Source of the DNA: Escherichia coli
GTDB lineage: Bacteria > Pseudomonadota > Gammaproteobacteria > Enterobacterales > Enterobacteriaceae
Reading direction: 5' to 3' (one strand)
Length of the DNA: 64,000 bases
NCBI RefSeq assembly: GCF_003991155.1
Contig: NZ_CP031293.1
Positions 31,590 to 34,917 of the stretch are shown here, in pieces (position 1 is the first letter of the stretch; the number at the start of each line of letters is the position of its first letter). A program made the position numbers and the translations under genes. The notes under the pieces are model-generated. The model saw only the letters and a list, made by a program, of their open reading frames with translations, made no database searches and had not been told where the DNA came from.

Positions 31590-32348
31590 TTACACATCAA
31601 GATAACTACCCAACCGATAACCACGCTCAGCAATCGCATATTTCAACGACGCTGAAGTCAGCACATCCAGTTCCGTTAACCGAGGGAAGCAATAAGCACT
31701 CTGGCGAATCGTATTATCGACAAACGCCGGATGGCACATCACTTCCAACGAGCGTTCCCCGCGATGGCTGGAATCATCAAGCACTTGCAGGAACAGTGCC
31801 TCGCTAATCTCTTCACCATAAAACGCGCTACTGAATCCCTGCGAACTGCGCAGATTAGCCGGTAAATCACCATCGTTAGATAGCGGCTGACGGTCGATGC
31901 GCAACGCAATCCCCTCTTCAGCCGCAAACTTTGCCACAATCGGGAAAATCTGCGGGAACATATGCACATGATGATGGCTATCAAGATGCGTAGGTTTGCG
32001 TCCAAATAGCTCAATGAAACGCAAATACTGACTGGCAAGCTCCTGAGTAATTTCTTCCAGCGGTAAAGCATCTTCTTCTGCCAACTGCCAGATCCATTTT
32101 CCCAGCACACCATCGCGGGTTAACCCAGGCATAGCTGTCAGAGGCTTGCCCATAGTAAGGACAAAGTGCATCCCTATGGCCAGACTCGGTTCATCACGGC
32201 TAAACTGCACCGCATGGTCAATAGCCTGCCCATTCACCAGCGCCGTCGTCGACGTGACAATCCCATTGCGACAGGCCTCGATAATGCCGTAGTTCTGACC
32301 TTTGCTTAAGCCAAAATCATCGGCATTAACAATCAGTAAGCGTTCCAT
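31590..32348 (-). CDS. chbG: chitooligosaccharide deacetylase (YdjC family)
   Basis: 252-aa ORF; last gene of the chb operon. Confidence 0.88.
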
Positions 32349-32360
32349 AATCAGCCTCGG

Positions 32361-33713
32361 TTAATGTGCTTTTTTAAGCTCTGCGATGCAGTCGGCAAAA
32401 TTTGGCAACCATTTCTCGTGCGCCAGAATCATCTCGCGTGCCAGCAGCTCAGCATCGCGATCGGAATGCACCAACGGACTAAGGTTTAGGGCCAGTAACA
32501 CATCGTTAAACTCTCCGCTAAGTGCGGCGTTGCTGGCAGCAATCTCGAAGCCTTTAATGGTGTGAATCAGCCCCATCACTTTATCATCGAAATGCGTAAT
32601 GCGCGGATGTGGCGTCGCGCCATCGCGCCCCAGCGTACAGGTCATTTCTACCGCCCAGTCTGCCGGAATATTATCAATATGCCCATGATGCGGGATATTA
32701 ACGTAATGTTCAGCTTGCTTGTCGTTGTAGATAGCGTTGATCACTTCGCACGCTGCATCAGAGTAATAAGCCCCACCGCGCTGTTCCAGTTCTTTCGGCT
32801 TAACTTTCAACTCCGGGTTTTTATATAGCTCAAAAAGTTGTTTCTCGACTTTCTGTACTACCTGCGCTCGTGCGCCGCCTTTGTAGTATTCGCCCATTTC
32901 AATAGCCAGCATCTCTTTTTGCTTGAAGTAATAAAGCAAATAAGAACACGGCAACAGATTCAGAGAACGAATTAAGCCTTCGCTAAATGGCAGATCGAAA
33001 ATATTTTTAACGCCAGATGCTTTTAACTGCCCGGATGCCACACCATCAAGCAATTCGGCAAAGCGTGATTTGCCATTTACCAGCACATCTTTAATGAACA
33101 CCATATGGTTGAGGCCGAACAGATCGATAGATAAATCATCGCTGTCTTTCAGCATCAGAACATCGCGAATAAACATCTTCATGCCTATCGGAATATTACA
33201 CACGCCGATAAAGCGTTTAAATCCGGTATGACGATAAACGGCTTCAGTGACCATTCCCGCCGGGTTAGTGAAGTTAATCACCCATGCATTCGGACAAAGT
33301 TCTTCGACATCTTTTACGATGTCAAAAATCACCGGAATGGTACGCAGACCTTTAAACAGACCGCCCGCGCCGTTAGTTTCCTGACCAAGATAACCATGAC
33401 TTAATGGAATACGTTCATCCAGTTCGCGCGCCGGTAATTGGCCTACGCGCAGTTGGGTAGTAACGAAATCAGCATCTTTCAATGCTTCGCGGCGATCCAG
33501 CGTTTTATAAAGCTTCATCGGGACGCCAGCGTTATCAATCATCCGTTGGCAGAGATCAAAAATAATATCCAGTTTCTCTTTACCATCTTCGACATCCACC
33601 AGCCATAATTCGCTGACCGGCAATTCGTGATAACGCTTAATAAATCCTTCCAGTAACTCCGGGGTATAGCTGCTCCCGCCACCAATAGTGACGACTTTTA
33701 ATTTCTGGCTCAT
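32361..33713 (-). CDS. chbF: 6-phospho-beta-glucosidase, GH4, NAD/Mn-dependent
   Basis: 450-aa ORF with N-terminal Rossmann motif (KVVTIGGGSSYTPEL). Confidence 0.92.
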   Translation of the reverse strand: MSQKLKVVTIGGGSSYTPELLEGFIKRYHELPVSELWLVDVEDGKEKLDIIFDLCQRMIDNAGVPMKLYKTLDRREALKDADFVTTQLRVGQLPARELDERIPLSHGYLGQETNGAGGLFKGLRTIPVIFDIVKDVEELCPNAWVINFTNPAGMVTEAVYRHTGFKRFIGVCNIPIGMKMFIRDVLMLKDSDDLSIDLFGLNHMVFIKDVLVNGKSRFAELLDGVASGQLKASGVKNIFDLPFSEGLIRSLNLLPCSYLLYYFKQKEMLAIEMGEYYKGGARAQVVQKVEKQLFELYKNPELKVKPKELEQRGGAYYSDAACEVINAIYNDKQAEHYVNIPHHGHIDNIPADWAVEMTCTLGRDGATPHPRITHFDDKVMGLIHTIKGFEIAASNAALSGEFNDVLLALNLSPLVHSDRDAELLAREMILAHEKWLPNFADCIAELKKAH

Positions 33714-33817
33714 AATTTCTCCCTTCAGTACAGAATACTGATATCTGGCATATCTGCCCCCCCGGACATAAATAATCCAGCAACAGGACAGATATGTGAA
33801 TTGTCAGGTATAACGAC

Positions 33818-34149
33818 TTACTGATTAAATTCAGTCAATTTCTTACGATAGCTCTTAGGCGTAAAGGACGTTAATTTCTTAAACGTTTTAATAAACAAAC
33901 TCGGGCTACTATAACCGGCCTCAAACGCAATATCCGTCACTGAATAGTTGGTCATTTCCAGTTGTTTTTTGGCAAAATTAATACGGATTTCATTAATAAT
34001 CTGCATTGGCGTTTTGCCATAATATCGTTGAGTCGCTCGCGTCAAATATTCCTGTGATTTGGCTGACAACGTCACCATATTCTCCAGCGCCGATTCACTA
34101 AACTGCTCTTTATCATGCATCTTTTCTACCGTACTTTTCAGCCACTGCG
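33818..34149 (-). pseudogene. chbR: chbR 3' fragment (AraC-type HTH domain), separated from the 5' part by IS1
   Basis: ORF 33818..34120 encodes an AraC/XylS HTH region; the two fragments minus one copy of the 9-bp duplication total 843 nt = 280 codons plus stop, the intact ChbR length. Confidence 0.85.
34141..34149. repeat. IS1 target-site duplication, left copy (GCCACTGCG)
   Basis: identical 9-mer directly flanks both IS1 ends. Confidence 0.9.
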
Positions 34150-34204
34150 GGTGATGCTGCCAACTTACTGATTTAGTGTATGATGGTGTTTTTGAGGTGC
34201 TCCA

Positions 34205-34480
34205 GTGGCTTCTGTTTCTATCAGCTGTCCCTCCTGTTCAGCTACTGACGGAGTGGTGCGTAACGGCAAAAGCACCGCCGGACATCAGCGCTATCTCTGC
34301 TCTCATTGCCGTAAAACATGGCAACTGCAGTTCACTTACACCGCTTCTCAACCCGGTACGCACCAGAAAATCATTGATATGGCCATGAATGGCGTTGGAT
34401 GCCGGGCAACCGCCCGCATTATGGGCGTTGGCCTCAACACGATTTTCCGCCATTTAAAAAACTCAGGCCGCAGTCGGTAA
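34205..34480 (+). CDS. insA: IS1 InsA (transposition repressor)
   Basis: 91-aa [46 protein letters not shown]... (zinc-finger-like Cys pairs). Confidence 0.93.
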
Positions 34481-34902
34481 CCTCGCGCATACAGCCGGGC
34501 AGTGACGTCATCGTCTGCGCGGAAATGGACGAACAGTGGGGATACGTCGGGGCTAAATCGCGCCAGCGCTGGCTGTTTTACGCGTATGACAGGCTCCGGA
34601 AGACGGTTGTTGCGCACGTATTCGGTGAACGCACTATGGCGACGCTGGGGCGTCTTATGAGCCTGCTGTCACCCTTTGACGTGGTGATATGGATGACGGA
34701 TGGCTGGCCGCTGTATGAATCCCGCCTGAAGGGAAAGCTGCACGTAATCAGCAAGCGATATACGCAGCGAATTGAGCGGCATAACCTGAATCTGAGGCAG
34801 CACCTGGCACGGCTGGGACGGAAGTCGCTGTCGTTTTCAAAATCGGTGGAGCTGCATGACAAAGTCATCGGGCATTATCTGAACATAAAACACTATCAAT
34901 AA
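34399..34902 (+). CDS. insB: IS1 InsB frame (expressed as InsAB' transposase by -1 frameshift)
   Basis: 167-aa ORF in the -1 frame relative to insA, overlapping the A6C slippery site. Confidence 0.9.
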
Positions 34903-34917
34903 GTTGGAGTCATTACC

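Follow-up and report, generated by a model that had tools for sequence, protein, structure and literature searches.

The IS1 element that lies within the chb operon of the window (the whole 64-kb stretch of Escherichia coli DNA analyzed here) interrupts chbR itself, not an intergenic spacer. The insertion is probably a regulatory knock-out with redundant polarity, a reading in which the loss of induction follows from the published function of ChbR, and the polarity from the anatomy of the locus together with the classical behavior of IS1. A sequence-only reading of this DNA had proposed that chbF and chbG are uncoupled from the PTS genes. The anatomy indeed suits polarity, but the activator ChbR is destroyed and the whole operon is expected to be silent, a larger effect which that reading overlooked. 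In kind, this is an ordinary IS1 insertional inactivation of a recurrent type, already flagged as a pseudogene in RefSeq.

Structure of the insertion and of the split chbR gene

The gene order and strand of chbBCARFG are those of K-12 b1733-b1738. [quoted passage not shown] The features of the operon and of the element are as follows.

37288..37608 (-), chbB (PTS IIB), first gene of the operon, intact, protein 100% identical to K-12
35846..37204 (-), chbC (PTS IIC), intact, protein 100% identical to K-12
35445..35795 (-), chbA (PTS IIA), intact, protein 100% identical to K-12
34913..35437 (-), chbR 5' fragment, ChbR residues 1-173, cupin / AraC ligand-binding domain
34918..34926, right copy of the target-site duplication, 9 bp, GCCACTGCG
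34150..34917 (+), complete IS1, 768 bp
34895-34917, right inverted repeat of IS1 (IRR), GGTAATGACTCCAACTTATTGAT
34205..34480 (+), insA, IS1 ORF
34150-34172, left inverted repeat of IS1 (IRL), GGTGATGCTGCCAACTTACTGAT
34141..34149, left copy of the target-site duplication, 9 bp, GCCACTGCG
33818..34149 (-), chbR 3' fragment, ChbR linker and AraC-type HTH DNA-binding domain, start codon severed
32361..33713 (-), chbF (celF), 6-phospho-beta-glucosidase of glycosyl hydrolase family 4, intact, 444/450 residues identical to K-12
31590..32348 (-), chbG, chitooligosaccharide deacetylase (YdjC family), intact, 252-aa allele

All chb genes except chbR are intact, and chbF is preceded by a strong Shine-Dalgarno sequence. 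No known structured RNA was matched in Rfam at the gathering threshold between 31000 and 38500.

Members of the IS1 family generate a direct target-site duplication of 8-9 bp. The element shows all characters of the family: a size of 768 bp, imperfect inverted repeats of some 23 bp at the ends (18/23 positions identical between IRL and IRR), insA and insB' frames linked by an A6C -1 frameshift motif (AAAAAAC, 34456-34462), with the insB' frame continuing to 34902 (+), and a target duplication for which an empty site exists. An identical sequence is labeled in RefSeq as 'IS1-like element IS1B family transposase, programmed frameshift'. No second IS1 end occurs anywhere in the 64-kb window (chance expectation 0). 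The transposase genes are on the plus strand and antisense to the chb operon, so that the 768-bp antisense IS1 claimed from the letters alone is borne out by the ends and by insA/insB'. The element does not occupy a spacer separating the upstream genes from chbF/chbG, however; its site is inside chbR.

The insertion point corresponds to chbR nt 512-520, after codon 173 of 280. The 5' fragment (labeled by PGAP as a chbR pseudogene 'missing C-terminus') ends with one IS1-encoded Arg followed by TAA at 34915-34913, 5 nt inside IS1. Pfam finds only Cupin_2/AraC_binding in the 5' fragment and only HTH_18/HTH_AraC in the 3' fragment, with HTH_18 at ChbR residues 202-273; sensor and DNA-binding domain are parted by IS1 in the interdomain linker, and chbR here lacks the contiguous ORF joining the cupin and HTH_18/HTH_AraC domains that a functional gene would have. 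In-silico excision of IS1 and one copy of the duplication restores a 280-aa ChbR that matches K-12 at 279/280 residues (A197T). The excised sequence (10,224 bp) is 100% identical to strain 2016C-3878, in which chbR is intact and GCCACTGCG is present as a single copy. The element would thus have entered the linker, between the sugar-sensing cupin and the AraC-type DNA-binding domain, by a recent simple transposition, and the HTH fragment would be deprived of a promoter-proximal translation start. As part of the best explanation as a whole, the truncated ChbR (173 residues plus Arg) is likely to be unable to bind DNA.

In some AraC-family activators, the C-terminal domain is able to activate constitutively on its own. 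That the freed DNA-binding domain of ChbR, started at Met181 (ATG at 34120), does so at the chbB promoter is nevertheless extremely improbable. A 100-aa ORF (33818-34120) holds the entire HTH_18 domain, and the interdomain linker is precisely where IS1 entered; however, no promoter was found upstream, the sequence before the ATG (GGTAGAAAAGATG) contains no good or usable Shine-Dalgarno sequence, and the other natural chbR::IS1 alleles cut the gene at many sites, the HTH region included, with no apparent selection for this architecture.

Predicted loss of induction and polarity

Chitobiose induces the chb operon through ChbR, an AraC-type activator (PMC4098024, PMC3551598); the activator role is also stated in PMC12791066, citing Plumbridge and Pellegrini (2004), and ChbR doubles as a co-repressor (PMC3551598, PMC12791066). 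The activator requirement as used here is taken from reviews. In the favored explanation, a regulatory knock-out, ChbR and cAMP-CAP would normally activate the chbB promoter after release of NagC when chitobiose is present, and with ChbR gone the entire chbBCARFG operon would stay at its uninduced level. Both chbBCA and chbFG are predicted to be uninduced because ChbR is the activator needed for induction. Any residual transcript arriving from the chbA side would be untranslated over 1.2 kb inside and after IS1 and would likely be cut short by Rho, a second and redundant block that would put chbF and chbG at a still lower level than chbBCA. Polarity on chbF/chbG should therefore be secondary to the loss of ChbR.

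The evidence for polarity is anatomical. All transcription that starts at the chbB promoter has to pass through IS1 antisense; the premature stop is separated from the chbF ATG by 1199 nt, and this gap contains no credible ORF led by a Shine-Dalgarno sequence, the antisense ORFs of IS1 included. An early stop and a long untranslated stretch before the next cistron, as expected of a polar insertion, are thus both present. Directly after the premature stop lies a region of biased composition:

34540..34890 (-), C-over-G-rich stretch of antisense IS1, C 27-37%, G 19-26%, candidate Rho loading region

The C/G ratio there is 1.2-1.6 over about 350 nt, while G is still at 19-26%. Windows of 78 nt with C/G of at least 1.3 make up 38% of this stretch, compared with 5% of the remaining operon transcript and 15-29% across the 64-kb window; the bias of antisense IS1 is moderate and does not stand far out from the window background. 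The minus strand of IS1 yielded no convincing intrinsic terminator. Its sole hairpin-plus-U site (34290..34276) was rejected, as its fold is no more stable than that of shuffled sequence (z = -0.8).

From these data a polar effect on chbF/chbG is plausible in mechanistic terms. Whichever way round it lies, inserted IS1 classically exerts strong polarity, through Rho. This argues against the view that RNA polymerase crosses the antisense element without meaningful polarity, leaving chbFG transcribed together with chbBCA at a level set by the promoter. The lack of a convincing intrinsic terminator and the moderate C/G bias speak for such read-through, but it is distinctly improbable also in view of the untranslated operon stretch of 1.2 kb, since Rho ends untranslated transcripts and such a stretch is a standard substrate for it (PMC7858274).

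The converse alternative, that the chbB promoter is still active, chbBCA is made and IS1 is mainly a polar block uncoupling chbF/chbG, is unlikely. It is favored by the early stop, the 1.2 kb of untranslated RNA and the C-rich stretch, and by the co-repressor role of ChbR (PMC3551598, PMC12791066), through which a null allele may permit CAP-dependent basal transcription when GlcNAc-6-P releases NagC. On the other hand, induction by chitobiose needs ChbR (PMC4098024), whose DNA-binding domain is severed, and without activation there would be little expression of chbBCA to be uncoupled from.

As a counterpoint to the predicted silence, loss of ChbR as a co-repressor could raise basal expression somewhat upon NagC release, in which case polarity would decide the output of chbFG.

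Given a regulatory knock-out, the lineage is predicted to be chitobiose-negative (no growth on chitobiose). The ChiX sRNA would not be titrated by the chbBC mRNA decoy, so that the chitoporin ChiP would not be derepressed, and the lineage is predicted to have lost the path via chb by which mutants usually come to use cellobiose. With respect to annotation, chbBCA, chbF and chbG look intact but ought not to be scored as a functional pathway.

Candidate promoters around IS1 and chbF

Promoters were sought by a consensus scan, complemented by inspection of the left end of IS1 by hand. The scan picked up the known inward promoter of IS1 (plus strand, 34157) as a positive control. Promoter-like matches in the region (7) were no commoner than in shuffled sequences (9.7 expected), and no minus-strand promoter was found by the scan inside IS1 or at the junction. 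IRL bears an outward -35-like hexamer, TTGGCA; the hexamers 16-18 nt from it (CTGAAA, TGAAAA and GAAAAG) all lack the required A2/T6. An outward or hybrid promoter at the left end of IS1 was accordingly rejected, neither the scan nor inspection by hand having yielded a proper -10, and the suggestion that a promoter near the IS1 end might drive chbF and chbG finds no match here. One native site lies in the chbR-chbF spacer, which is 100% identical to K-12:

33772..33800 (-), sigma-70-like site TTCACA-17-GATTAT, 9/12 matches

It is located 59 nt before the chbF ATG and is the sole candidate that could drive chbFG independently of the operon.

Independent expression of chbF/chbG, from a promoter at the left end of IS1 or from a native one in the spacer, is very unlikely. 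The outward TTGGCA of IRL and the conserved spacer site (33800..33772) are in its favor, whereas the lack of a fitting -10 hexamer near IRL and of a minus-strand site at the junction or in IS1, the shuffle comparison, and the roughly equal occurrence of both orientations among natural insertions of IS1 in chbR stand against it.

Natural chbR::IS1 alleles and known systems

The exact allele, in site and sequence, is present in 3 of 5,426 complete E. coli genomes, in all of which RefSeq/PGAP marks both halves of chbR as pseudogene fragments. In about 25 further complete-genome records, a full IS1 sits at another position of chbR, in one orientation or the other. Taken together, the chbR::IS1 alleles occupy at least nine distinct sites, among which the interdomain linker forms a small hot spot, and are found in about 0.5% of complete genomes; the variants among the other alleles are IS1A, IS1B and IS1X2. 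Regarding orientation, 19 records were found against 17 (roughly 15 against 12 inside chbR proper), and an orientation bias, which would have hinted at a selected promoter effect, was rejected on these counts. The similar frequency of both orientations fits a simple loss of function and not an orientation-specific promoter effect. Single-piece BLAST matches suggested insertions at the same site in the opposite orientation, which was rejected because exact mapping places them 15 bp away, duplication to duplication. About 27 copy-occurrences of IS1 in chbR compare with about 11 expected if some 64,000 chromosomal IS1 places were uniformly distributed, a rough figure in which shared descent is uncontrolled; this excess is not striking, and an enrichment of IS1 in chbR was not accepted. 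It is quite unlikely that the recurrent natural knock-outs reflect selection for loss of chb function rather than neutral decay, with N4-like phages as one possible agent. A 2025 preprint reports that the Keio deletion mutants of chbR, chbC and chbF resist N4 and that complementation restores them. The allele by itself raises no new question.

The other natural chbR::IS1 alleles resemble the present one in carrying a full IS1 within chbR, some of them in the same linker at a distance of 15 bp, and differ from it in site, orientation and IS1 variant.

Cel+ mutants, in which an IS activates the cryptic cel (chb) operon, were reportedly described by Parker and Hall in 1990 and by Kachroo et al. 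in 2007. The operon and the type of element are the same as here. The Cel+ insertions, however, are located on the upstream side of the chbB transcription start, where they lower repression by NagC/ChbR and need a functional (often altered) ChbR, whereas the present IS1 lies in chbR, 2.2 kb past the chbB start codon, and is predicted to inactivate and not to activate. An activation of the Cel+ type was rejected on this position and on the finding that the region upstream of chbB (37609-37906) contains no IS. According to a review (PMC13267602), the regulation of chb is remodeled by IS1, IS2 and IS5.

The polar IS1 mutations of gal and lac in E. coli share with the present allele a 768-bp IS1 in a polycistronic operon and an early stop in the interrupted gene. 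There as here, the downstream genes need transcription across an untranslated element, and Rho polarity is expected in either orientation. In contrast to those mutations, IS1 here interrupts the gene for the activator of the operon itself. For this reason the insertion would also act in trans on the promoter, making its polar effect redundant.

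Structure of the chb operon and of the IS1 insertion

[quoted passage not shown] The position given there for IS1, its 768-bp size and its orientation, with insA on the strand opposite to the operon, were also correct. That reading had placed the element between the upstream genes and chbF/chbG, but it interrupts a gene: the insertion is contained in chbR itself and involves no intergenic gap. A direct duplication of 9 bp, GCCACTGCG, borders IS1 at 34141-34149 and 34918-34926 inside chbR. Comparison with K-12 proteins and Pfam identified chbR, which encodes the AraC-type regulator, as the sole damaged chb gene, the other five being intact. 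No Rfam match was found in the chb region.

Features of the chb region (positions in the window)
37288-37608, minus strand: chbB, intact, protein identical to K-12
35846-37204, minus strand: chbC, intact, protein identical to K-12
35445-35795, minus strand: chbA, intact, protein identical to K-12
Minus strand: chbR 5' fragment, residues 1-173, then one Arg codon in IS1 and TAA at 34915-34913; cupin/AraC ligand-binding domain (Pfam)
34150-34917, 768 bp: complete IS1, transposase genes on the plus strand (antisense to chb), terminal repeats matching at 18 of 23 positions
34205-34480, plus strand: insA, ORF of IS1
34456, plus strand: A6C frameshift motif of IS1
End at 34902, plus strand: insB' frame of IS1
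33818-34149, minus strand: chbR 3' fragment, remainder of the protein; HTH_18/HTH_AraC DNA-binding domain, residues 202-273 (Pfam)
33800..33772, minus strand: sigma-70-like site TTCACA-17-GATTAT, chbR-chbF spacer, 59 nt before the start of chbF, same in K-12
32361-33713, minus strand: chbF, intact, 444 of 450 residues as in K-12
31590-32348, minus strand: chbG, intact 252-aa YdjC-family allele

The element stands alone, with no other IS1 ends within the 64-kb window. Removal of IS1 and one copy of the duplication in silico restored a ChbR of 280 aa that differs from K-12 only by A197T. Because the two Pfam domains fall in different fragments, IS1 parts the sensor domain of ChbR from its DNA-binding domain. 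Relative to the 249-aa K-12 protein, ChbG has three inserted residues and substitutions clustered around residues 151-169, and the katE-chbG spacer measures 46 bp versus 257 bp in K-12 (region compared: 31544-32348). Judged by sequence, this divergence looks allelic or mosaic and unconnected to IS1.

According to a review, chitobiose induces chb via ChbR (PMC4098024). Passages in PMC3551598 and PMC12791066 (the latter citing Plumbridge and Pellegrini 2004) describe ChbR as an AraC-family dual repressor/activator acting with NagC and cAMP-CAP, and ChbG supplies ChbR with its inducer and ChbF with its substrate (PMC9402603). Induced chbBC mRNA titrates the ChiX sRNA as a decoy, by which the chitoporin gene chiP is derepressed (PMC4098024, PMC7815308). 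Going by these published functions, a truncated ChbR without DNA-binding domain would be unable to activate, so that the operon as a whole should stay uninduced and the strain is predicted to be chitobiose-negative; the chbBC/ChiX decoy response, and hence chiP derepression, should also be lost.

Transcription of chbF and chbG

IS1 insertions are classically polar in either orientation, and the sequence-only reading had suggested such an effect on chbF and chbG, uncoupling them from the PTS genes chbBCA. The anatomy fits: 1199 nt separate the premature chbR stop from the chbF ATG. Strong Shine-Dalgarno sequences are present at chbF and chbG, but no usable one precedes the Met181 ATG within chbR or the antisense ORFs in IS1. 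The first ~350 nt of the antisense IS1 RNA are richer in C than in G (C/G of at least 1.3 in 38% of 78-nt windows vs 5% in the remaining operon transcript), a moderate signal, with G still at 19-26% and the same ratio in 15-29% of all windows across 64 kb. Untranslated transcripts are terminated by Rho (PMC7858274). No convincing intrinsic terminator was detected (sole candidate hairpin, z = -0.8 vs shuffles). Polarity is a plausible candidate effect, likely should transcripts enter IS1. It would add a second block, redundant with the loss of the regulator and subordinate to it, and would set the levels of chbFG only where some transcription persists independently of ChbR, e.g., with NagC released.

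A promoter near the IS1 end had been proposed as a possible driver of chbFG. A TTGGCA facing outward does occur in the left terminal inverted repeat (34150-34172), but the hexamers 16-18 nt from it are not acceptable as a -10 element, and a promoter scan that recovered the known inward IS1 promoter as a positive control yielded none on the minus strand at the IS1 junction or within IS1. Promoter-like matches in the region are no commoner than in shuffled sequence, and the TTCACA-17-GATTAT match is at chance level; chbF is not known to have an internal promoter.

Distribution and recurrence of IS1 in chbR

Strain EC0585 (NZ_CP195049.1; human urine, China) is 100% identical to window 27000-40000, and the same chbR::IS1 allele is also present in CREC-544 (human, Korea) and CUVET16-465 (cat urine, Thailand), the allele frequency being 3 of 5,426 complete E. 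coli genomes. PGAP annotates two chbR pseudogene fragments flanking an IS1B-family transposase in all three carriers. Empty sites with 100% identical flanks occur in many genomes, and precise excision of IS1 plus one duplicate leaves 10,224 bp that match strain 2016C-3878, whose chbR is intact, at every position. On these alignments the insertion is a clean, recent, simple transposition, of a type already known and in an allele already annotated.

The three carriers differ at only two positions in 13 kb, both in chb PTS genes: chbC of CREC-544 is frameshifted by the loss of 1 bp from a C5 run (window 36292), and chbB of CUVET16-465 has a G45C missense change (window 37476). These differences (n=2) may reflect relaxed selection after chbR loss or homopolymer assembly error. 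Each of the three chromosomes has only 2 IS1-matching places, where the median for an E. coli genome is ~10, so the lineage has very few IS1 copies, that in chbR among them.

When a query carrying IS1 in the observed or the reversed orientation was searched at ≥ 80% coverage against the 5,426 complete genomes, 19 and 17 records were retrieved, respectively, showing no orientation bias of IS1 in chbR. Roughly 15 and 12 of these (~27 in total) have IS1 inside chbR (33818-35437) itself, at nine or more distinct sites, seen or inferred. A rough uniform-insertion estimate predicts ~11 occurrences, a modest enrichment in which related genomes are counted separately. At a second site, gene nt 535-543 (window ~34118-34126; duplication GAAAAGATG), 15 bp from the present insertion, IS1 lies in the opposite orientation in four strains, cM2a, L6-21, 50EVAW and CAVP888, with a duplication of 8 bp, GAAAAGAT, at this linker site in CAVP888. 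Since the IS1 variants there differ (IS1A, IS1X2), several independent insertions took place; the pattern points to the interdomain linker of ChbR as a small hot spot for IS1. In NZ_CM149594/572/556 (MEI*-1023) and NZ_CP100895 (ET846), chbR adjoins one end of IS1 and chbB the other, which suggests that IS1-mediated deletions took chbA, chbC and part of chbR.

This recurrence may be due to selection, to a preference of IS1 for the target or simply to the loss being tolerated; the even split of orientations favours plain loss of function over a selected promoter effect. In a droplet RB-TnSeq preprint, Keio deletion mutants of chbR, chbC and chbF resist phage N4, and complementation restores sensitivity (10.1101/2025.09.29.679331). 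Such resistance might explain why chb knock-outs would be selected in nature, although we regard it as unlikely that recurrent chbR loss was selected, for instance by N4-like phages.

Comparison with known IS insertions

IS-mediated Cel+ activation of the cryptic cel (= chb) operon needs the element to lie upstream of the chbB promoter and ChbR to be functional (PMC13267602). It was rejected here, as the present IS1 is not upstream of that promoter and ChbR is not functional. The present insertion should act like the classical polar IS1 insertions known from gal and lac; unlike in those operons, the gene struck here is the operon's own activator.
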